Below are positions 11,615 to 54,310 of a stretch of 64,000 bases of DNA, piece by piece (the first letter of the stretch is position 1; every line of letters starts with the position of its first letter). Source of the stretch: Escherichia phage vB_EcoM_G2469. A program made the position numbers and the translations under genes. The stretch lies in the sequence record MK327934.1; one strand, written 5' to 3'. The notes under the pieces are model-generated. The model made no database searches. It was not told the origin of the DNA and was given only the letters and a program-made list of their open reading frames with translations.

Positions 11615-13183
11615 ATGACTACTATCAAAACTAAAGCTCAGCTCGTAGACAAATGGAAAGAACTGCTGGAAGGTGAAGGCCTGCCGGAAATCGCTAATAG
11701 CAAGCAGGCTATTATCGCTAAAATCTTCGAAAACCAGGAAAAAGATTTCGAAGTATCCCCTGAATATAAAGACGAGAAAATCGCTCAGGCATTTGGTTCT
11801 TTCTTGACCGAAGCTGAAATTGGTGGTGACCATGGTTATAATGCTCAGAACATCGCAGCAGGTCAAACCTCTGGTGCAGTAACCCAAATTGGGCCGGCAG
11901 TTATGGGTATGGTTCGTCGTGCTATTCCTAATCTGATCGCTTTTGATATTTGTGGTGTTCAGCCTATGAACAGCCCGACCGGCCAGGTATTTGCTCTCCG
12001 TGCAGTATATGGTAAAGACCCTATCGCTGCTGGCGCTAAAGAAGCTTTCCATCCGATGTATGCCCCAGACGCGATGTTCTCTGGTCAGGGTGCTGCTAAG
12101 AAATTCCCAGCTCTGGCTGCTGACACTACTACTGTTGTAGGTGATATCTATACTCACTTCTTCCAAGAAACTGGTACTGTATATCTGCAAGCTTCTGCTG
12201 TCGTAACACTTGATTCTGGTGCAACTGATGCAGCTAAATTAGATGCAGAAGTTAAGAAACAAATGGAAGCTGGTGCACTGGTAGAAATCGCTGAAGGTAT
12301 GGCTACTTCTATCGCTGAACTTCAGGAAGGTTTCAACGGTTCTACCGATAACCCATGGAATGAAATGGGCTTCCGTATCGATAAACAAGTTATCGAAGCT
12401 AAATCTCGCCAGCTGAAAGCTGCTTACTCTATCGAATTAGCACAAGACCTCCGTGCAGTACACGGTATGGATGCTGATGCTGAACTGAGCGGTATTCTGG
12501 CTACAGAAATTATGCTAGAAATCAACCGTGAAGTTGTTGATTGGATTAACTACTCAGCACAGGTTGGTAAATCTGGTATGACCCTGACTCCGGGTTCTAA
12601 AGCTGGCGTATTTGACTTCCAAGACCCGATTGATATCCGTGGTGCTCGTTGGGCCGGTGAAAGCTTTAAATCTCTGTTGTTCCAGATTGATAAAGAAGCA
12701 GTTGAAATTGCTCGTCAAACCGGTCGTGGTGAAGGTAACTTCATTATCGCTTCCCGTAACGTAGTTAACGTACTGGCTTCAGTTGATACTGGTATTTCTT
12801 ACGCTGCACAGGGTCTGGCTTCTGGTTTTAATACCGACACTACTAAGTCTGTATTTGCCGGTGTACTTGGTGGTAAATACCGCGTATACATCGACCAGTA
12901 TGCTAAACAGGATTACTTCACCGTTGGTTACAAAGGCGCTAACGAAATGGATGCAGGTATTTACTATGCTCCTTACGTTGCACTTACCCCGCTGCGTGGT
13001 TCCGATCCTAAGAACTTCCAGCCGGTAATGGGCTTTAAAACTCGTTACGGTATCGGTGTTAACCCGTTTGCTGAAAGTTCCCTGCAGGCTCCAGGTGCTC
13101 GCATCCAGTCCGGTATGCCATCTATCCTGAACAGCCTTGGTAAGAACGCTTACTTCCGCCGTGTATATGTAAAAGGCATCTAA
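11615..13183 (+). CDS. 23: major capsid protein gp23
   Basis: 522 aa; MTTIKTKAQLVDKWKELLEGEGLPEIANSKQAIIAKIFENQEKDFEVSPEYKDEKIAQAFGSFLTEAEIGGDHGYNAQN... is the T4 gp23 sequence pattern. Confidence 0.97.
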   Translation: MTTIKTKAQLVDKWKELLEGEGLPEIANSKQAIIAKIFENQEKDFEVSPEYKDEKIAQAFGSFLTEAEIGGDHGYNAQNIAAGQTSGAVTQIGPAVMGMVRRAIPNLIAFDICGVQPMNSPTGQVFALRAVYGKDPIAAGAKEAFHPMYAPDAMFSGQGAAKKFPALAADTTTVVGDIYTHFFQETGTVYLQASAVVTLDSGATDAAKLDAEVKKQMEAGALVEIAEGMATSIAELQEGFNGSTDNPWNEMGFRIDKQVIEAKSRQLKAAYSIELAQDLRAVHGMDADAELSGILATEIMLEINREVVDWINYSAQVGKSGMTLTPGSKAGVFDFQDPIDIRGARWAGESFKSLLFQIDKEAVEIARQTGRGEGNFIIASRNVVNVLASVDTGISYAAQGLASGFNTDTTKSVFAGVLGGKYRVYIDQYAKQDYFTVGYKGANEMDAGIYYAPYVALTPLRGSDPKNFQPVMGFKTRYGIGVNPFAESSLQAPGARIQSGMPSILNSLGKNAYFRRVYVKGI

Positions 13184-13207
13184 TCTTAATTGATTAAATC
13201 TTATTTT

Positions 13208-13234
13208 GGGAGACTTCGGTCTCCCATTTTTGGT
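13208..13234 (+). terminator. rho-independent terminator after gene 23 (GGGAGAC-UUCG-GUCUCCC plus U-run)
   Basis: 7-bp stem with UUCG tetraloop followed by ATTTTTGGTTTT. Confidence 0.75.
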
Positions 13235-13235
13235 T

Positions 13236-13505
13236 TTATTTCTGTGCAATTTCGATGTAAGTTTTCAAAATATTTTGCCAATTAGGCATACCTTCTTGGA
13301 CATATGCCGGAGAACCATCTTTGTTTTTGAATGATGCAAGTTTATCAGTGGCCCAATAACCTTTAGCTCGAGCTTCAGAACCAACTTTCATCCATACTTT
13401 GTTGAAGGCATTACCATTAACTTTTGCACCATATTTTTCTACTAACTTAATTGCTTCAGCTTCCAGAACTTTTAAAGTATCTCGTAAGAAACGTGCTTTA
13501 GTCAT
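13236..13505 (-). CDS. hypothetical early protein, 89 aa, opposite strand between genes 23 and 24
   Basis: ORF with SD GAGGAG and own early-type promoter upstream; no recognisable motif. Confidence 0.55.
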   Translation of the reverse strand: MTKARFLRDTLKVLEAEAIKLVEKYGAKVNGNAFNKVWMKVGSEARAKGYWATDKLASFKNKDGSPAYVQEGMPNWQNILKTYIEIAQK

Positions 13506-13535
13506 TTTGTTTACTCCTCTGTAGTTGATAAGTCT

Positions 13536-16295: not shown

Positions 16296-16492
16296 TTCTT
16301 CACCTTTTTGTTAATCAAACGTTTACGGTATACAACTTTTTCTTTTGCTTTAAACTTTGACCGAGCTGTCTCGGCTTTAGTCCATAGTAATCCAACTTCT
16401 TTAGGTTGTAAACCAATTTTTTGAGCAATTTCTACGAATGAAAATCCCGCCTCATGTAATGTATAAACTTCAACTTCAGCTCTCATAATCAA
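16292..16492 (-). CDS. hypothetical small protein with helix-turn-helix-like segment
   Basis: 66 aa; segment SFVEIAQKIGLQPKEVGLLW resembles an HTH; basic C-terminus. Confidence 0.5.
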   Translation of the reverse strand: MIMRAEVEVYTLHEAGFSFVEIAQKIGLQPKEVGLLWTKAETARSKFKAKEKVVYRKRLINKKVKK

Positions 16493-16568
16493 TCCCGTAT
16501 TATTTGGTTTGTGCCATTATATACATCAATCTCAAGTTGTGTTTTTGTATGCTTTAAAAACGAAGAAA

Positions 16569-20229: not shown

Positions 20230-20252
20230 GGCCCGACCTTTTTGGAAGGGCC
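20230..20252. terminator. hairpin between uvsW.1 (+) and the small Cys-rich ORF (-)
   Basis: GGCCC...GGGCC stem with A-runs on both sides. Confidence 0.5.
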
Positions 20253-21198: not shown

Positions 21199-21595
21199 AC
21201 ACTCTATTGCTTGACGCTAACTGAAGTTTAATTTGTTCAATATCGTCAGGGTTGTCTATGACCGAAAATCTAATCTCTACTATAACCGTATAGTCGTCAT
21301 ATACTGGCGTTACACTTACAGAAAGTTTGTCGATGCGTGGCTCATAGTTACGAACAGCTGCCTGGATATTACGCTCAATCGTATCGGCTGTAAGTGGTGT
21401 CATGTTCTCGAAAAGTTCATCAACCAAATCGCATCCAAATTCAGGGTCGAAGGGGCGCGAGCCTTTTCTAGTTGTCACTATGCCAAGAAGACTATTTTTA
21501 ATAGAACGAAGTCCTACAGAACGAGCAACGTCCTTGTTCCAATCCATACGCATTTCTGGGTCGATATCTGAATAAAGTTTATTGATATTAGACAT
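21197..21595 (-). CDS. 25: baseplate wedge protein gp25
   Basis: 132 aa; MSNINKLYSDIDPEMRMDWNKDV...SRPFDPEFGCDL... matches T4 gp25. Confidence 0.93.
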   Translation of the reverse strand: MSNINKLYSDIDPEMRMDWNKDVARSVGLRSIKNSLLGIVTTRKGSRPFDPEFGCDLVDELFENMTPLTADTIERNIQAAVRNYEPRIDKLSVSVTPVYDDYTVIVEIRFSVIDNPDDIEQIKLQLASSNRV

Positions 21596-24190: not shown

Positions 24191-24671
24191 TAAAAAGGTA
24201 ATGATTCCTAAATTAGGGCTCAAACATTATAATCTTTTAAAGGACGTTAAAGGTCCTGATGAAAATATGAAAATCTTAGCTGATTCTATTTGTAAAAATA
24301 TGAGTCCCGCAGATTTTGATTTTGCATGTCTACACATATTGGAATTTAATAACAAACTTAAGTCTGAAGTTGAAAAAGACGGATTCACGTATAAACTAGA
24401 TGACGTCTATGTATGCCAACGAACAGAATTCCAATTCCAAGGCAATACTTTTTATTTTAGACCTCCAGGCAAATTTGAGCAATTCGCTACAATCAGTGAA
24501 ATGCTATCAAATTGCTTAATAAAAGTTAATGACGAAGAGAAAGAAATTTCTTTCCTTGAGATGCCTGCTTTTGTAATCAAATGGGCAGAAGACCTTTCGA
24601 CAACTATTGCTATTCCAGGCCCCAATGGTCCTATTAAGGGTATAGCAGAAATTATTGGATTGCTTGAATGA
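24138..24671 (+). CDS. 28: baseplate hub distal protein gp28
   Basis: 177 aa, T4 gp28 length; start overlaps 3' end of gene 27 (start codon choice uncertain). Confidence 0.8.
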
Positions 24672-26440
24672 AACCTGAAGAAATGAAATCCATGCGTAGA
24701 AATAAGGTCATTGCCGATAATAAACCACAAAAAGTAGCTGCTGATGCAGCTACCGATTCATTAGAAGCATTGAATAACATTTCATCAAAACTAGACGATG
24801 TCCAAGCCGCGTCTGAACTCACATCACAAAGTGTAGAAGATAAAGGCAATGGAATTATTGAATCAATTGGAGACTTAAAGAATTCGACAGATAATACTGC
24901 TGAAGGCACAGAGCTTATCGCAGAAGTTATTGAAAAACAAACTGAAGTCACTAAAAGTATAAACGAAGTTTCTAGTGCAATAAGCTCTAAGTTAGACCGA
25001 TTAGCTACATTATTAGAGCAAAAATTACAAACATCTACCGCTATTCAAAATACAGGAGGCACCTCTCTTGAAGTAATTGAGAACGCAATACCTGTTAAAG
25101 TGGTTGAGAATGAAACTTCTGATGAGCTGTTTAAAGCATTCCCTACACCTGAAAAGATTGATAATAAGCCAGACGAAGATTTCTTCCCGGCTCCGGTTCA
25201 AGAAAGTGCTAATTCTACTTCCGATTCTAAAGGTGGAATTAGCTTTAAATTGAGCGATAAAATTGCAATGCTCACCAAAACAGTTCAAACCGGGTTTAAT
25301 AAATCAATATCAATTTCAGACAGAATTGCTGGAATGCTTTTCAAATACACTATAACGGCTGCTATTGAAGCAGCAAAAATGGCCGCACTTATTCTTGGTA
25401 TTGTTATCGGTATTGATTTATTGATAGTCCATTTCAAATATTGGACAGACAAGTTCACTTCTGCCTGGGATTTATTTGATGAAAACTTTACTAAATTCTC
25501 CGATGAAGCTAAAGAGTGGGGTAAATTCTTAAGTGATATATTCACTTCTATTGACTCGATAAAACAATTGTGGGAAGCTGGAGACTGGGGTGGTTTAACC
25601 GTTGCTATTGTCAAAGGTGTAGGAACAGCATTAATGAACTTAGGTGAACTAATTCAATTAGGAATGGCTAAACTCTCTGCGTCTATATTGCGTGCTATAG
25701 GTTTTGGCGATACCGCGGACGAAATAGAAGGACGTGCTTTGGAAGGATTCCAAGAAACTACTGGGAACAAATTAAAGAAAGAAGACCAAGAGAAAGTCGC
25801 TAAATATCAAATGAAGCGTGACGATGGGGAATTAGGAACCGTTTCTAAAGGTCTTGATATGCTACAACGCGGCAAAACATTCGTTACTAACTGGGTTCGT
25901 GGTAATGACAATAAAGAAGAGTTTAGTACAAGTGATGAGCGTGCTGCGGAATCGGCAAAATTAAAAGAGTTACCTGAAGAGGAGCGTAAAGAGGCATATA
26001 TAAAAGCTAATGAAACTCGTGCGGCACTGGTTAGATTTGAGGATTATATCGATAAAATCGATATGACTAATCCGGAAAATGCTAAAAACGTCGAGAAGTC
26101 TTATGCTGATTTAAGTAAACTTATTAAAGACCCTGAACTTAATAAAACTCCTGTTGTTAAAAAGGAATTAGATGCTAGATTTGAAAAGCTAAATAATAAA
26201 ATGGCTGAAGCCAAAAAGGCTCAGACAACAGTTAAGCCTGAATCTTCGTCTAAATCTCCGGAAGCAAAACAAGTTCAGTCAATAGAGAAAGGACGTGCTT
26301 CTGAATCTAAACAACAGCAACCGGTAGCGGCGATTAGTAACACAAATAATGTCGTCAAAAAGAATACCGTAGTCCAGAATATGACCCCTGTAACAAGTAC
26401 AACGGCTCCTGGAATTTTCCATGCCACCGGTGTTAATTAA
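24668..26440 (+). CDS. 29: baseplate hub / tail length determinator gp29
   Basis: 590 aa as in T4 gp29; internal hydrophobic segment. Confidence 0.9.
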   Translation: MKPEEMKSMRRNKVIADNKPQKVAADAATDSLEALNNISSKLDDVQAASELTSQSVEDKGNGIIESIGDLKNSTDNTAEGTELIAEVIEKQTEVTKSINEVSSAISSKLDRLATLLEQKLQTSTAIQNTGGTSLEVIENAIPVKVVENETSDELFKAFPTPEKIDNKPDEDFFPAPVQESANSTSDSKGGISFKLSDKIAMLTKTVQTGFNKSISISDRIAGMLFKYTITAAIEAAKMAALILGIVIGIDLLIVHFKYWTDKFTSAWDLFDENFTKFSDEAKEWGKFLSDIFTSIDSIKQLWEAGDWGGLTVAIVKGVGTALMNLGELIQLGMAKLSASILRAIGFGDTADEIEGRALEGFQETTGNKLKKEDQEKVAKYQMKRDDGELGTVSKGLDMLQRGKTFVTNWVRGNDNKEEFSTSDERAAESAKLKELPEEERKEAYIKANETRAALVRFEDYIDKIDMTNPENAKNVEKSYADLSKLIKDPELNKTPVVKKELDARFEKLNNKMAEAKKAQTTVKPESSSKSPEAKQVQSIEKGRASESKQQQPVAAISNTNNVVKKNTVVQNMTPVTSTTAPGIFHATGVN

Positions 26441-28905: not shown

Positions 28906-30992
28906 TATCCTTGGACAAATTTAAACGGAACTGATTCTAAATCCATTAAAGATGCTAACAATTTCAAACCTTTAGGTGCACTAGTTTTTTCTACAAATGA
29001 GGAGAACGATACCGGCTCAACTGATTCGATTTCACCCGTCATAGCAACCACCTCGCCTGTTTCCATGAGAACATCACCATCGTAAATGACAGCTTCATCT
29101 AACTGGTCTGAGGACATGACTTCAGCTTGAATAAATTTAAGGTTGGATTCTAAACCTGCACCAGTGTCAGATGACGCATCTGTAATTTTATTTATCTGCA
29201 AGAGAATGCCTCTAGGCAAAATAATTTCTTGCTCATTAGGGTGATTACTCAACTGTCCCGGATAAATCACGTTAACTTTATGGGCGCCATCAATAGCCCA
29301 TCCAACGTTAACACGGATTTGTTCTGGTGCATGCATAGCTGTTCTTACTTGACTAGGAGAAATAGTAACACCTTCGTCATTATTGTCAATGTTAAGCTCT
29401 TTGCGAACTTCTTCAGGAGCAAGTCCAAGGGCAACGTTCTCTTTAAACCCACCGAAAATAATAGGAGCTAGTGAAGTGGAAACATAGTTTCTGAAATAGA
29501 ATACCTTATTTTTAACCATTGCTTCGTAAATAGGCATTCTGATAGACTGAGCTCTATATAACGTTAGTCCTTCAGGTAAACGGTCTCCATTTAAAAACGC
29601 CGAATCAAGACCATCAATAGCGCGTTTAACTTCATCTTCATCTGCAACATCGTAAAAATCTGGTTTATAACGACCTAACAACATATTATTGATATCGGTA
29701 TACGCAGAAGAGGCATATTCACGAATAGCTCGTTTTTCAGCAACAGAGTATTGTTTAGGGTCCCGATTCATTGTTATATTAAAGGTGCCTCTAGCCGATT
29801 CTCGTGCATAAGTATACATCACATTAGACAAGAACGCTGATTTACGTTGTTTCCAAGTTTTTTCAGATACTTCAGCTAAAACATCGTCGGCCAGTTGGAA
29901 ATTATCACGTCTAAAATCTTCAAACCATTCGTCTTTAATAGAGTCTGCAATTTCATTTGCAGCTTCAACAAAAGCAGCTAATGCTTTAACAGATGTTGTT
30001 TTTTCAGTTTTAATTTTCTTAGCAAACTTTTCTAAAGTTGGCTTAATAACACTACCATAAGAAACTTCATCAGCAAATCTAAAGGATTCATCAATACGAT
30101 TATAAATCTTATTTTCGATATCAGCAACTAAAGTGCCTTTTGCTGTGGATGATGCTTGGGCCAGTACGATTTCATATGCTTCAGGAAGTAATTCGGCTGT
30201 AGCTGGGCCACTAACTTCTTTAGCAGAATTTTCGTATTTCTGGAATAACTCACCTTCTTGTCGGTCAGCTTCTAAAGATTGACTTGCTGCAATAGCACGA
30301 CGAGAAATTTTAGTACGAGCAATAACAGGCTTATCTTTACGTTTTTCTTCTACAGCAGCAATAGAACCAGCGATAGCCGTTTCTTTGGTGACCTTTTCGC
30401 CGGTCTTTTTACTCACATAAACTTCGCCAACATCAGAATCTACTTTCGTGTACAACTCTGTGTTAATGTTAGGGATGCCTTTAATATCTTCAATGTTGGC
30501 ATTTTTACGAACCATCATCACATAGGTGTGTTTACCTGTGAATTGATACATTGCCGACAATACTTTAAAACGACCACCGGTTTTAGTAGAAACTAAACGA
30601 GCAAGAAGAGTTTGAAGCTGCTGACCACGTCCTTTCAATTTCTTGGTAGGGAATCGGAACAGAACTGCATCCATACGAAGAGCTTTAACCTGTTCATATA
30701 CTGTATTGAAAATGGTGTTGATTGCATCAATAGGAGCAGGACCAAGGCCATTTTTCAATTCAGCGAGATTACCCTTTTCAGACAGACTCATAATAACAAC
30801 ATGAGCGTATTTGTCGCCAAGTTTAACTTGTTTTACGGCGTCGCCTTCGGAAAGGTAAGAGAATAAACGAACTACGATGTTTGTATCGATATCACCAATT
30901 TTCCAGACTTGTGGAACTTTAGCTTTAGGGTTCAAATTGACGACAGGAAGACTGCCTTCAGATTCAAACACTTCATTTAATTGTTCAGACAT
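28905..30992 (-). CDS. alt: Alt mono-ADP-ribosyltransferase (capsid-packaged, injected)
   Basis: 695 aa; extended similarity to T4 Alt as recalled (…KISRRAIA.SQSLE…, RLP.G.TLYR.Q, VFYFRNFVSTSL, C-terminal FKFVQG). Confidence 0.88.
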   Translation of the reverse strand: MSEQLNEVFESEGSLPVVNLNPKAKVPQVWKIGDIDTNIVVRLFSYLSEGDAVKQVKLGDKYAHVVIMSLSEKGNLAELKNGLGPAPIDAINTIFNTVYEQVKALRMDAVLFRFPTKKLKGRGQQLQTLLARLVSTKTGGRFKVLSAMYQFTGKHTYVMMVRKNANIEDIKGIPNINTELYTKVDSDVGEVYVSKKTGEKVTKETAIAGSIAAVEEKRKDKPVIARTKISRRAIAASQSLEADRQEGELFQKYENSAKEVSGPATAELLPEAYEIVLAQASSTAKGTLVADIENKIYNRIDESFRFADEVSYGSVIKPTLEKFAKKIKTEKTTSVKALAAFVEAANEIADSIKDEWFEDFRRDNFQLADDVLAEVSEKTWKQRKSAFLSNVMYTYARESARGTFNITMNRDPKQYSVAEKRAIREYASSAYTDINNMLLGRYKPDFYDVADEDEVKRAIDGLDSAFLNGDRLPEGLTLYRAQSIRMPIYEAMVKNKVFYFRNYVSTSLAPIIFGGFKENVALGLAPEEVRKELNIDNNDEGVTISPSQVRTAMHAPEQIRVNVGWAIDGAHKVNVIYPGQLSNHPNEQEIILPRGILLQINKITDASSDTGAGLESNLKFIQAEVMSSDQLDEAVIYDGDVLMETGEVVAMTGEIESVEPVSFSSFVEKTSAPKGLKLLASLMDLESVPFKFVQG

Positions 30993-33004: not shown

Positions 33005-33820
33005 TTAACAATTTATAGACCAAGTCCATTTGGACGAATCTAAAGGAAAGTTTTGAATCGTCCACCATGGCTGCATATCGGTTGGTCCTGGAGTTCGCCA
33101 GGTATACGGATTCGACGGAGCGCCGATTTGATTAGGCCATGCGCCTGGACTTGTTGCACCAGATTCTTTAAGCAAATCCGCCAATCGTTTTAAAAGGTCT
33201 TCACGATCTGAATCTGAATTATGCTCAGGTGGAACCAAACGAGATTCAATATCATCCCACGTGTGTACACGTTGTGCAGTACGAGGAATGGCATCACGTT
33301 CACCACGAGCCAACCAATAAATCGGTACATTAAGAATTTCTGCTGCATGGTCACAGTGATGAGCTAAATCGTCAACGTAACAAATCACGTTATATTTTGT
33401 TTTAGCTAGTTCAAATAATTGTTCCTTTGAAGAAACATGACCACACATCATTACTTCAGAGAAAGCGCCTGGGAACAAAGCATTCAAATTAAATTGTCTA
33501 TTCAATCGAGCATCAATTGAATCACCTAGCGCCGTCACGGCTACAAAATTATAGTCTTCTTTTAGTTTATTGATAACTCTAAGAGCATCCGAATAAGGCG
33601 CTAAGTAACGAATAAAATCAGAGCGATTATATTTTTCTATTAATTGTTTACCGAGGTTATCGTCGGTATTGAATAGTTTACCAGGAGAAATAAATTTTTC
33701 ATCCTGAATCATTTTTAAAATATGTTCTAATGGAAGATTATATTTTTGGGCAAAATAAGGAAGTCCAGATTGCCAGCTTAAACATACACCATCAATATCA
33801 GTCAAAATAGTAGGCTTCAT
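33005..33820 (-). CDS. conserved T4-type protein 30.2-like with N-terminal HAD-like motif
   Basis: 271 aa; N-terminal LTDIDGV resembles HAD phosphatase motif I (DxDG[TV]). Confidence 0.65.
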   Translation of the reverse strand: MKPTILTDIDGVCLSWQSGLPYFAQKYNLPLEHILKMIQDEKFISPGKLFNTDDNLGKQLIEKYNRSDFIRYLAPYSDALRVINKLKEDYNFVAVTALGDSIDARLNRQFNLNALFPGAFSEVMMCGHVSSKEQLFELAKTKYNVICYVDDLAHHCDHAAEILNVPIYWLARGERDAIPRTAQRVHTWDDIESRLVPPEHNSDSDREDLLKRLADLLKESGATSPGAWPNQIGAPSNPYTWRTPGPTDMQPWWTIQNFPLDSSKWTWSINC

Positions 33821-34284: not shown

Positions 34285-34486
34285 TTATAATTTCAACATC
34301 AGCCCAATGTCCGTATCCAGGTATACGGTCTTCGATAGATAAATTTCTGTCATTTTTAGGCATTTTAATTGACGTAACGTATGGTTCTAAACGGTTTTCC
34401 GCGTAATATGGAAAAACGTCGGTTACACGATAAGTAACTTCAATCATTTCCGTACCAAACAATTTCTGGATTAATTTATTCAACAT
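34268..34486 (-). CDS. hypothetical protein (30.x block)
   Basis: 72-aa ORF in an overlapping gene chain. Confidence 0.5.
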   Translation of the reverse strand: MLNKLIQKLFGTEMIEVTYRVTDVFPYYAENRLEPYVTSIKMPKNDRNLSIEDRIPGYGHWADVEIISVKDV

Positions 34487-34673
34487 GTTTCAACCCTTTA
34501 ATAGGAGATAACTCTTTACCCATACGTATGTCAGAAGTCCCATCAACCCATTGAACAGCATACGCTTCATTGATAATTCCAGCGGCAGTTTTAAATTCGT
34601 TGAGAACTTTAAAAATCATCCCAGGGATTCCAACACCTTTTAATTGGACTGTTTGTGCTATTAAAAATTTCAT
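34476..34673 (-). CDS. hypothetical protein (30.x block)
   Basis: 65-aa ORF with early-type promoter (TATAAT) upstream. Confidence 0.5.
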   Translation of the reverse strand: MKFLIAQTVQLKGVGIPGMIFKVLNEFKTAAGIINEAYAVQWVDGTSDIRMGKELSPIKGLKHVE

Positions 34674-34727
34674 ATTTTTCCACTTACTAAAGAAATCATT
34701 ATACTCTAATCCGTCCTTGGATGTACA

Positions 34728-35009
34728 CTACTTAATGAAATTAATTTCTACCGGATGAACAACAGGTTGAGCAGTGATATATTGAGTAATTGCTTTCATG
34801 ACTAGAGCTTCAGAACCAGGATTTTTCTCAACGAATTCACGTGCTAGGTTATGAGCTTCGAGTTCACTCAATAAACCGGAACGCTGGCATCCACGGTCTT
34901 GAGTACCCTGTTCAGATAAAAGGACTACTACATATTTTTCATCGTCGTAGGGCTTAGCCAGTTGAGCAAATGTTCCTTTACTTCCAAAAGGAGAGTTATG
35001 TCGCCACTT
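34728..35009 (-). other. roughly 93-codon open frame without ATG/GTG start, +1 relative to the upstream gene (possible frameshifted gene or non-canonical start)
   Basis: Hand translation of - strand: ...SPFGSKGTFAQLAKPYDDEKYVVVLLSEQGTQDRGCQRSGLLSELEAHNLAREFVEKNPGSEALVMKAITQYITAQPVVHPVEINFIK*; only internal TTG and a late ATG. Confidence 0.35.
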
Positions 35010-35343
35010 TCACGCCGTGAGGAGTTTCAACCTTCGTATATTCGTGCGGTCCATTTTTCTTAGTTTCTTGATGTGGAACTTCATAGACCTTAGGGTTAGG
35101 ACATTCAATAAAATGCTCATCTAAATCGGTCGAGAATATTAAAGTAAAACAATTACTGAATTTACCAACACCGGCCTGATAAATTTTACCTTCAGAAGTT
35201 CTAATTTCACAAACCGAGCCGGCATCAGTAACTTCTAAAACTTCAAAAGGCTCGATAAGGTCATATGAGAACATGTTTTTAAGGCGTGGAGTAATATCCC
35301 CATTTTTAAAATTCATTTTATAAAAAGTATTAACTTTAAACAT
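34996..35343 (-). CDS. hypothetical protein (30.x block)
   Basis: 115 aa from ATG with SD GAGGAA (ORF track began at an upstream TTG). Confidence 0.55.
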   Translation of the reverse strand: MFKVNTFYKMNFKNGDITPRLKNMFSYDLIEPFEVLEVTDAGSVCEIRTSEGKIYQAGVGKFSNCFTLIFSTDLDEHFIECPNPKVYEVPHQETKKNGPHEYTKVETPHGVKVAT

Positions 35344-35378
35344 AATTTCCTCAATGGGAGCCGAAGCTCCCAATTAAT

Positions 35379-36258: not shown

Positions 36259-36296
36259 ATCTTTTTTTAAACTTTTTCTGCCCTAAACGCACAAAA

Positions 36297-36314
36297 GGGA
36301 GACCGAAGTCTCCC
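36297..36314 (-). terminator. rho-independent terminator after the 59-aa basic ORF (UUCG loop on - strand)
   Basis: - strand GGGAGAC-UUCG-GUCUCCC followed by UUUUGUGCGUUU. Confidence 0.65.
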
Positions 36315-36319
36315 TAAAA

Positions 36320-36499
36320 TTATGCAACAACCTTTCCAAAACGAGAAGCATCATCTCGAAGAACTGCACGTGCTCTGCGCATGATCTTCTCAACTGTTTG
36401 ATTAATACGAGAGTTCGACCCACGCTTGTATCCAGCGCGTTTAGAGGTACCATCAACTTTCTTTTCAACTGCTTTCTTTGCTTTAGCTTGTTTTGCCAT
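36320..36499 (-). CDS. hypothetical small basic protein (59 aa)
   Basis: Hand-translated MAKQAKAKKAVEKKVDGTSKRAGYKRGSNSRINQTVEKIMRRARAVLRDDASRFGKVVA; followed by UUCG hairpin and T-run. Confidence 0.45.
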   Translation of the reverse strand: MAKQAKAKKAVEKKVDGTSKRAGYKRGSNSRINQTVEKIMRRARAVLRDDASRFGKVVA

Positions 36500-36762
36500 T
36501 ATAAATTCTCTTTAAATGAAAATGCAGGACTTATTGACATTGCCTGCGCAAGCCCTCAAGGGGAACATAGGTTTTGGATATTTAACGACAGGATAACCAT
36601 AAACCCGTCATCATACCAACCACGACTTAGACAGATAACCTTTTTCTGACGCGTGATAGTACAAAATACATTCAAGAGGTACACCGTAAAACTGCCGGGG
36701 ACTTAAAACTATAATGATTCGCAAATCATTAATCAGACAGTTCGACGGCTCCTCGATTTAAC

Positions 36763-49887: not shown

Positions 49888-50199
49888 TTATACCGCCATT
49901 TTAGCTTTGATAGCTGGATGTGATTCGTAATTTTTAAGAACGAAATCAGAATGTGTCATTGTTCCAGTAACCCAGTCCATTTGGATTTTTGTAGGCCAAT
50001 TCTCAAAATTACTAGGCCAATTAATTTCAAGAGAACATAACTCTTTAGGTTCACGACGAAGAACTTCTTTGCATTGTTCTACATGATTGCGGTAGATATG
50101 CGTGTTGCCGCCTGAGAACACTAAATCACCTGGGATAAGGTTACACATCTTCGCTACAATATGCGTCAAGGCAGCGTAAGAGGCAATGTTGAACGGTAG
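49888..50199 (-). CDS. td: thymidylate synthase Td, exon 2
   Basis: Encodes LPFNIASYAALTHIVAKMCNLIPGDLVFSGGNTHIY...; exon begins right after intron-terminal AUG. Confidence 0.9.
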   Translation of the reverse strand, partial: LPFNIASYAALTHIVAKMCNLIPGDLVFSGGNTHIYRNHVEQCKEVLRREPKELCSLEINWPSNFENWPTKIQMDWVTGTMTHSDFVLKNYESHPAIKAKMAV

Positions 50200-51215
50200 C
50201 ATTATGTTCAGATAAGGTCGTTAATCTTATCCCGGAATTATATCCAGCTGCATGTCACCATGCAGAGCAGACTATATCTCCAACTTGTTAAAGCAAGTTG
50301 TCTATCGTTTCGAGTCACTTGACCCTACTCCCTAAAGGGATAGTCGTTAGGCATTTATGTAGAACCAATTCCACTTATCAGATTTTACACGGTAAGTAAC
50401 TAATCCTGATGAAATTTCAAAATGTCTAGCCGCATCGGCTGCACATTCAAAAATAATCCCATCGCATGAAATCTTTTTGATGTTAGCTGGCTTTTTGCCT
50501 TTCATCTTTTCAGATAGTTTAGTTTTAGTTTTTTCTGAATGTTTGTGATTAAAGAACGGGTTATTTTCACCTGAACGTTTTCGGCACTTTCCACAAGTAT
50601 CGGCCGAAGATGGTATGCGAACACCGCATTTACAAAACTTGTGGTTTTCTGGATTCCATCGGCCATTTTTACTTCCGTGTTTACCATAAAGAGCTTTCCG
50701 ACCATCAGGACCAAGCTTAAGCATCTTAACTTTAACAGTTTCAGCTCGTTTCTTAGCAATTTCTTCTTTTAATGGATGATTTGAAAGCACATCGCCAAAA
50801 GACGCATCAGCAATATTATATCCATTAATTTTAGAATTTAGCTCTTTAATCCAAAAATTTTCTCGTTCAATAATCAAATCTTTCTCATACGGAATTTCTT
50901 CCAGTACAGAGCATTCAAAAACATTACCATGTTTATTAAAAGACCTTTGAAATTTTATAGAAGAGTGAACACCGTTTTCAAGGTCTTTAAAATGTCTCTT
51001 CCATCTTTTCTCAAAATCTTTAGCACTTCCAACATACACTTTACCGTTTAAAGTGTTTTTAATCTGATAAATTCCGCTTTTCATAAACACCTCTTTTTAT
51101 ATAGAAGTATTTATTAAAGGGTAGTCCTACAATTTAGCACGGGATTGTCTACTAGAGAGGTCCCCCGTTTAGATAGATTACAAGTATAAGTCACCTTATA
51201 CCTAGGCCTAAATTA
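50200..51215 (-). mobile_element. group I self-splicing intron in td carrying I-TevI
   Basis: 1016 nt, same length as T4 td intron; 5' end UAAUUAGGCCUAGGUAUAAGGUGACUUAUACUUGUAAUCUAUCUAAACGGGG... almost identical to T4 td intron as recalled. Confidence 0.9.
50347..51084 (-). CDS. intron-encoded GIY-YIG homing endonuclease I-TevI
   Basis: 245 aa from MKSGIYQIKNTLNGKVYVGSAKDFEKRWKRHFKDLE...; GIY-YIG motif; matches T4 I-TevI. Confidence 0.93.
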   Translation of the reverse strand: MKSGIYQIKNTLNGKVYVGSAKDFEKRWKRHFKDLENGVHSSIKFQRSFNKHGNVFECSVLEEIPYEKDLIIERENFWIKELNSKINGYNIADASFGDVLSNHPLKEEIAKKRAETVKVKMLKLGPDGRKALYGKHGSKNGRWNPENHKFCKCGVRIPSSADTCGKCRKRSGENNPFFNHKHSEKTKTKLSEKMKGKKPANIKKISCDGIIFECAADAARHFEISSGLVTYRVKSDKWNWFYINA

Positions 51216-51764
51216 ACCTAAGAAAACATCTACACTGCGTTGATACCATTGTAAATCAAGATGTCCATTACGCACATTAAATTGATAGAACATATGACAA
51301 GGAGGAAGAGCCATTTGGTCAATTTCGGCTGGGTTCCATGCAGAAACTATTTGACGACGATCATTAGGAAGAGCTTTAATGCGGTCGATAGTTTTGACCA
51401 ATTGGTCTACACCACCAAAATCACGCCATTGCTTACCATAAATAGGACCAAGTTCGCCGCTATGATATCCAAGGTCTTTTGCCTGATTTTCATAGTTGTC
51501 GTCCCAAATAGTTTTACCTTGAATAAGACTACCATGAGTACGAATACGCAAATCATTAACATTGGTAGAACCAGACATGAACCACAGTAACTCGGCAATA
51601 CAAGCTTTCCATGCTAATTTCTTAGTTGTTACTGCAGGAAATCCTTTAGTAAGGTCCCAACGTAATTTAGTTCCGAACAGGGCAATAGTGCCGGTACCTG
51701 TACGGTCGTCTGTTTCGTAGCCATTTTCTAAGATATCTTTAATCAGGTATTGGTATTGTTTCAT
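51216..51764 (-). CDS. td: thymidylate synthase Td, exon 1
   Basis: 183 codons MKQYQYLIKDILENGYETDDRTGTGT...PPCHMFYQF...QRSVDVFLG then in-frame UAA in intron. Confidence 0.93.
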
Positions 51765-53410: not shown

Positions 53411-54310
53411 TTATAGACCAGCTAACAGGTCATCGAGGTCGCCATCGTCAGAAGACGAGGAACTCATGAAGTCATCTTCAGTTTTTGCAGAACCAAAGGC
53501 TTCCATGTCTTTATCAAAATCATCAAGGTCAGAAGCAACTTTATCTGCAACAGAAGCTGCTGCGGCTGCTGCACCACCAAGAGCGGCAGTACCAAGAACT
53601 TGATTAAATTTAGTATTCAATTCTTCAAACGATTTGAACTTATCTTTAGAAGTCATTTCAGAAAGGTCAACCATTTGTTCGAACAATTCTTTCTGGAAAG
53701 ATTCATCATCAATGTTTGGAATCGCAGATTGATTCAGGAATTTAGATTCATCGTAGTTACTGAAACCAGAAACCTGTTTAACTTTCAGCACAAAGTTAGC
53801 ACCTTCCCATGGGCAAGTTACATCAACAGGAGTTTCACCCATTTCAGTATCGACTGCAATCATTGCATTGATTTTGTCCCAAATCTTTTTACCGAAACGA
53901 TATTTGAATACTTTACCTTCATTATCTGGAGCTTGTGGGTCTTTAACAACCAGAATATTAGCCCAATAAGAAGTTTTACGTTTCAGTTGAGAATATTCAG
54001 TTTTGTTGGTATTGTACAGGTCATTTTTACTAATGTACTGACATACAGGACAAGAGTCATAATCGCCGTGTGTAGATGAACAGGTTTCAATATACCATTT
54101 ACCATTTTTCTTGAACCCGTGGTTAACAAGAATTGTAAACGGAAGTGCGTCATCTGTTTTTGCCGGCAGGAAACGAATTACCGCTTGACCATTACCGGAT
54201 GCATCGAGTTTCAGCTTCCATTCACCTTTATCTTCTGAAGAGAAACCTTTGTTACCATTCAGTTTAGCCATCTGAGCTGCGAGGTCTGCGGTACTTTTAC
54301 GTTTAAACAT
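53411..54310 (-). CDS. 32: single-stranded DNA-binding protein gp32
   Basis: 299 aa; [36 protein letters not shown]... matches T4 gp32; acidic C-terminus. Confidence 0.96.

Follow-up and report, generated by a model that had tools for sequence, protein, structure and literature searches.

A start-less 93-codon open frame in the phage vB_EcoM_G2469 genome as the probable stranded 3' part of gene 30.6A

The start-less open frame at 34728..35009 (minus strand) of the window, the 64,000-nucleotide stretch of Escherichia phage vB_EcoM_G2469 analysed here, is very probably (about 95%) the 3' 45% of gene 30.6A, cut off from the rest of that gene by a T>AA change, and represents either a broken gene or a sequencing error and not a gene in itself. 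It holds codons 113-204 of 30.6A together with the native TAG. Gene 30.6A belongs to the accessory genes of the RB69-like T-even phages (Mosigvirus) and is located between 30.7 and 30.5. The locus holds nothing more unusual than such a gene split by a frameshift, or an assembly error at one site, within a known family; it is neither a new gene nor a recoding signal. For annotation, this means that the 93-codon frame should not be called a gene or a recoding event, and that the locus is best described as a disrupted 30.6A.

Anatomy of the interrupted gene

Read along the minus strand, the frame opens after the TGA at 35012-35010, continues for 93 sense codons (35009..34731) and closes with the TAG at 34730-34728; it is +1 relative to the upstream ORF, which ends with the TAA at 34998-34996. 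Its translation is KWRHNSPFGSKGTFAQLAKPYDDEKYVVVLLSEQGTQDRGCQRSGLLSELEAHNLAREFVEKNPGSEALVMKAITQYITAQPVVHPVEINFIK. There is no GTG in this frame, nor any ATG or GTG that could begin a full-length product, and start-like codons are limited to a TTG at 34871, after which 47 aa remain, and an ATG at ~34799, after which ~23 aa remain. The coordinates, the length and the absence of a start codon are all as given in the original prediction, and the same holds for the internal TTG and the late ATG that it named as the sole starts. The TGA bounding the frame on its 5' side (35010..35012, minus strand) is a product of the lesion described below, and reads G-TGA-AAG in the downstream frame.

The upstream ORF (34996..35343, minus strand) is the truncated 5' part of 30.6A. 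It extends from the ATG at 35343-35341 to the TAA at 34998-34996, and its product of 115 aa is made up of 111 native codons plus K-V-A-T read out of frame. This product is 100% identical to QBO62905.1 of vB_EcoM_G2469, and the GenBank record of that phage lists only the 115-aa 'hypothetical protein' at the 30.6A locus. The true start is the ATG that follows GAGGA, as opposed to the TTG of the 125-aa version in the mechanical ORF list; this Shine-Dalgarno sequence (35348..35352, minus strand), read from the DNA, lies 4 nt ahead of the ATG, and a ribosome binding site is annotated at the equivalent place in the TuIa record (AJ621579). Between 30.7 and 30.6A there is a GC-rich, terminator-like hairpin, GGGAGC-TTCG-GCTCCC (35355..35372, minus strand), the equivalent of which carries a terminator or stem-loop annotation in WFL6982, SA79RD and TuIa.

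The flanking genes encode a 121-aa gp30.7 and a 65-aa gp30.5, all on the same strand as 30.6A, and the order 30.7, 30.6A, 30.5 is likewise annotated in moha, WFL6982, SA79RD, TuIa and JK45. Directly past the TAG, and ahead of 30.5, is a promoter-like site, TGTACA-18-TATAAT (34698..34727, minus strand), with a promoter annotated at the equivalent position in SA79RD and TuIa. As gene 30.5 (34673..34476, minus strand) has this promoter-like site and a ribosome binding site of its own, its expression need not depend on the broken 30.6A, and polar effects should be small.

In moha, WFL6982, SA79RD, TuIa and JK45, a single CDS of 615 nt (204 codons) is annotated where the window has two pieces, and TuIa and JK45 use the gene name 30.6A for it. 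The lesion itself (35008..35010, minus strand) was located by aligning the window with moha, WFL6982, SA79RD and SQ17. Where relatives read CAC GGC GTG ATG TGG CGA CAT AAC, the window reads CAC GGC GTG AAA GTG GCG ACA TAA; that is, AAA stands in place of AT, the T of codon 112 (ATG) having become AA at 35009-35008, with a net gain of 1 nt. This is the sole frame-shifting difference in the alignment, GTGATGTGG versus GTGAAAGTGG. When AAAG is swapped for ATG the gene becomes 100% nucleotide-identical to that of moha, and its 3' half is nucleotide-identical to moha, WFL6982 and JK45 as it stands. Inactivation of a gene by a 1-nt indel was the first of the options originally put forward, and the alignment with orthologous 30.x genes, which had been proposed as the means of checking it, was decisive: relatives have one ORF of 204 codons, and the window has T>AA, net +1, at codon 112. 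The idea that the indel would be one of homopolymer length near 34996-35010 did not hold, the change being a substitution plus an insertion that together make AAA at 35010-35008.

The intact form predominates in the databases. Of 113 phage records, 112 read a 33-aa peptide across the junction without a change of frame, and the one exception, phage SQ17, is shifted in the opposite direction. A query of 1.1 kb matched 646 phage records, the best at 99.8% identity, and in the close records each match was exactly one base shorter than the query; by these matches the window belongs to an RB69-like T-even phage (Mosigvirus). With 121 nt spanning the site as query there were 108 matching records, none of which is 100% identical or has the window's variant; the 30 matches listed cover 120 nt for the window's 121, or 119 for 120. 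A metagenome scan gave a single locus, with 30.6A intact. Neither the window's 30.6A allele nor any length variant at the site was matched in the IMG/VR viral contigs, a collection that does not contain this gene, the window's variant was absent from E. coli complete genomes, and a look-up of the exact 115-aa product in a gene-position index returned no record. Within 500 nt on either side of the lesion there is no direct or inverted template for GTGAAAGTGG.

In this allele, ribosomes starting at the ATG at 35343 read the 111 native codons, add K-V-A-T and stop at the TAA at 34998-34996. Codons 113-204 lie one base out of frame, and because they have no start or ribosome binding site and sit behind the TGA made by the lesion, the stranded frame is presumably untranslated. 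The phage would then make only a 115-aa protein, consisting of the N-terminal module described below, and would lose the C-terminal module, a loss that is likely to be tolerated, 30.6A being presumably an accessory gene that the phage can do without. As the stranded half has no further change, the event is probably very recent.

Coding character and modular structure of gp30.6A

The openness of the frame is weak evidence when taken alone: from the base composition, the chance of one stop-free run of 93 codons is ~0.0016, but shuffled versions of the 64-kb window yield ~8 such runs per strand. The real window has seven runs of 93 or more codons that contain no stop and no usable ATG or GTG, the start-less frame included. 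The other six, of 101-217 codons, are at 21221-21571, 36287-36649, 53426-54079 and 30276-30596 on the plus strand and at 24452-24757 and 12779-13264 on the minus strand; judged by their coordinates, they appear to be shadow frames, antisense to long genes or across intergenic sequence. That the frame at 34728..35009 is real coding sequence follows from its homology to the protein family phrog_17531 and from a pN/pS of 0.13-0.18 for the C-terminal half, measured between allele groups in relatives, a ratio which indicates that this half is under purifying selection in those phages.

Of the 204 positions of the family phrog_17531, the upstream ORF accounts for 1-111 (E = 9.6e-78) and the start-less frame for 113-204 (E = 1.2e-60), while the intact moha protein matches all of them, 1-204 (E = 2.3e-146). 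Instead of the single ORF of ~204 codons that marks the gp30.6A family, the window has a 115-aa ORF and a 93-codon remnant, and to judge from these matches it holds a disrupted allele of the family rather than a functional full-length member.

Two modules can be distinguished in gp30.6A, an N module (~residues 1-100) and a C module (~residues 95-195). The N module is found also in other small phage proteins (phrog_622, phrog_8920, P0023). The conserved core of the C module lies within the start-less frame and reads Y.V.L.E.GTQDRGCQRSGL...A..EF...NPG.EA; in other T4-like phages, including CkP1, C6, SP18 and others, the module occurs in stand-alone proteins of 116-152 aa. A profile search found only 7 clusters, all of T4-like phages. 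As the reading frame is lost where the C module starts, the product in the window is essentially the N module alone.

In the search for a function, matches in PHROGs were to families of 'unknown function' only, a Pfam search of 30.6A gave 0 families at E <= 1, and a literature search on 30.6A returned only unrelated numeric matches. An AF2 model of the full protein has a pLDDT of 49 and is unusable; a model of the C module alone (pLDDT 72, beta-loop-alpha-beta) has no significant neighbour in the PDB, the best Foldseek match being at E = 0.76. When the 93-aa remnant by itself served as query, a word-index protein search found no match though the family is in the database, which was taken as a quirk of the index. 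The 65-aa gp30.5 proteins (P0004, P0006, P0012, P0016) share a 90%-identity cluster with the 204-aa gp30.6A (P0001) despite unrelated sequences; this co-clustering is probably an artefact, for which a fused or mis-called sequence may be responsible.

Mutation or sequencing error, and the SQ17 allele

The anatomy described above would be the same whether the T>AA change arose in the phage or in the reading of its DNA. We lean towards the former, and consider the lesion more likely than not to be present in the phage itself, because it is the sole indel to break a conserved gene in ~62 kb and because the change is not a slip in homopolymer length. A sequencing or assembly error, in which a T was miscalled as AA and the phage retains an intact 30.6A of 204 codons, is nevertheless a serious possibility. 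The rest of the gene is nucleotide-identical to that of intact relatives, as an error would predict, and the window's allele is found in no other record. The G2469 study used PacBio RSII or MiSeq, and a long-read-only consensus is possible; each phage was sequenced by PacBio RSII/HGAP3 or by MiSeq/SPAdes, and the method for G2469 is not stated (Korf et al. 2019, PMC6563267).

The nature of the change speaks against such an error: one base is substituted and one inserted to give an AAA where there was none, and no existing homopolymer is altered in length. A change in homopolymer length is the usual long-read error. Homopolymer differences from JK45 were also used as a gauge of assembly quality, and most of them are common to other phages: the T5/T4 difference at 16309 is shared with KAW3E185, and the A6 at 20230 is matched by records that align without a gap. 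One, at 16546, is possibly private. The site is an intergenic T-run close to the terminator that separates hoc from the small ORFs; the run counts five T in the window and four in JK45 and KAW3E185, and this further single-base difference is absent from the eight matches listed (all 99.7% identical) of 159. The fifth T could be a change private to the window or an error of sequencing; it bears weakly on the quality of the assembly, on the side of an error. Across ~62 kb of the window compared with JK45, the 30.6A lesion is the only indel that breaks a conserved gene; other indels of 1-2 nt fall between genes, or in divergent tail-fibre sequence where one offsets another.

The same comparison reveals several larger differences between the two genomes. 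Relative to JK45, gene 30.2 has a 9-nt in-frame deletion at 33111, and the rIII/30.9 intergenic region, downstream of rIII, has a 32-nt deletion at 36760. JK45 carries, in the space between genes 23 and 24, a gene for a segD-like homing endonuclease together with a small ORF (~930 nt, L007:13395-14329), in place of which the window has ~275 nt of unrelated sequence (13239-13514); a mobile endonuclease here shows presence/absence polymorphism. In the other direction, the thymidylate synthase gene td (49888-51764, minus strand) consists in the window of two exons, 51213..51764 and 49888..50202, separated by an insert of ~1.0 kb that is absent from JK45 and holds a 247-aa GIY-YIG (I-TevI-like) ORF at 50347..51090. 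The insert looks like the T4-type td group I intron, and gave no match in an Rfam scan at the gathering threshold.

A comparable lesion is found in phage SQ17 (MW882907.1), and it weighs against an error in that it has been reproduced at the level of reads. The 30.6A product of SQ17 (QVW29355.1) is a frameshifted protein of 158 aa. At the site (L004:3262-3402, set against window 35004-35013) SQ17 reads GGCGTG--TGCGGCG, an A being deleted and a T changed to C, with a net loss of 1 nt and an out-of-frame tail of 46 codons. The Logan assembly of SRR27732229 (L005) reproduces this allele exactly over 3,558 nt, and as this read-level assembly is independent, it shows that loss of the C module is viable. 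The two alleles are alike in that 30.6A is broken at the codon pair ATG-TGG (112/113) by a compound change that leaves the N module intact; they differ in that SQ17 has a net change of -1 and a different allele background. The SQ17 lesion is an independent event and not one shared by ancestry. Its T>C change turns CGGCGT into a perfect direct repeat. Templates were sought for both lesions, and apart from this CGGCGT repeat of SQ17 there was nothing that could have served as one.

There are, then, two compound lesions of opposite sign within 3 nt of each other in a 615-nt gene among ~114 genomes, for which the chance is ~1% if lesions fall at random. A hot spot of mutation, selection acting where the two modules meet, and chance could each account for the coincidence. 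One proposal is that codon 112/113 (GTG-ATG-TGG) would be a hot spot where, in Mosigviruses, the link between the N module and the C module is broken time after time and each time independently; this we consider improbable. Possible causes of such a hot spot are cleavage by a homing endonuclease or topoisomerase followed by imprecise repair, or selection to shed a C module that triggers host defence while the N module is kept; under the same proposal, the AAA-G of the window's allele might still permit some full-length protein by +1 slippage. Two lesions at one codon are in any case a cheap lead for work on mutational hot spots or on the function of 30.6A.

Translational alternatives and comparison with known systems

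A third option of the original prediction was a programmed +1 frameshift joining the two ORFs, and a frameshift of this kind, programmed or usefully leaky, is very unlikely. The tRNA-Lys would slip from AAA to AAG at 35010-35007, the stretch at stake being CACGGCGTGAAAGTGGCGACATAAC, and the product would be full-length gp30.6A with M112K, differing from wild type by that single residue. The overlap between the TGA (35012-35010) and the TAA (34998-34996) comprises only four sense codons with AAA-G among them, and AAA-G is the one site where a P-site tRNA could re-pair after a +1 shift, as GTG, GCG and ACA do not. The criteria for frameshifting rest on the established prfB-type and dnaX-type signals, and such signals are missing here: there is no SD-like element upstream, where the sequence is CUCCUCACGGCGUG; the A-site codon is the common GUG, neither rare nor a stop; and the 131 nt downstream, when folded, have no structure beyond that of shuffled sequences (z = +1.04, with 172 of 200 shuffles folding at least as well). 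Three A's are too few for transcriptional slippage. The split architecture is not conserved, the ORF being continuous in 112 of 113 homologous records. Occasional read-through at a low level, from a +1 slip that happens spontaneously on AAA-G, is compatible with the sequence.

The remaining alternative, that the C module is made separately from a non-canonical start or by restart after the TAA, can be set aside as extremely unlikely: the module does occur on its own in other T4-like phages, and there is an AAGGA at ~34981-34977 with an in-frame CTG 12 nt downstream, but initiation from a CTG at that spacing would be very poor, no ATG, GTG, ATT or ATA lies near the 5' end of the frame, which also lacks a Shine-Dalgarno paired with a near-cognate codon at a spacing of 5-9 nt, the TTG at 34871 and the ATG at ~34799 lack a Shine-Dalgarno and would remove much of the conserved core, the stand-alone homologues start 20-45 residues upstream of a conserved W and include an H.YT motif that the window has in the other frame, and the split arrangement is unique to the window's record.

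The nearest recoding system is that of E. coli prfB, which is like the window in that one protein is encoded across two adjoining frames, the second at +1 to the first. In the prfB type, a conserved slippery codon is followed by a poor stop, and an SD-like stimulator lies 3 nt upstream, all of them kept among homologues; the window has neither the stop nor the stimulator, and its AAA-G, where re-pairing would be possible, is not conserved. A second comparison is with the stand-alone C-module proteins (P0018-P0021, P0024, P0025), among them CkP1_0226 of a Citrobacter phage and the proteins of Escherichia phage C6 and SP18 gp30.6A, which have the C-module core in common with the start-less frame at 42-51% identity. 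These have a start codon of their own and a short unrelated N-terminal stretch, both of which the window's copy lacks.

The closest system is gp30.6A of the T-even phages themselves (TuIa CAF21717.1; JK45 YP_010076291.1; moha QHR68377.1). If the start-less frame is read as the stranded part of 30.6A, the window and SQ17 together indicate that a phage in culture survives the loss of the C module of gp30.6A, as would be expected of a dispensable accessory gene within the hyperplastic 30.x block. With the intact genes the window shares the locus, the start codon, the ribosome binding site and the stop, while its own copy is broken at codon 112 and encodes only 115 aa, with residues 113-204 out of frame.
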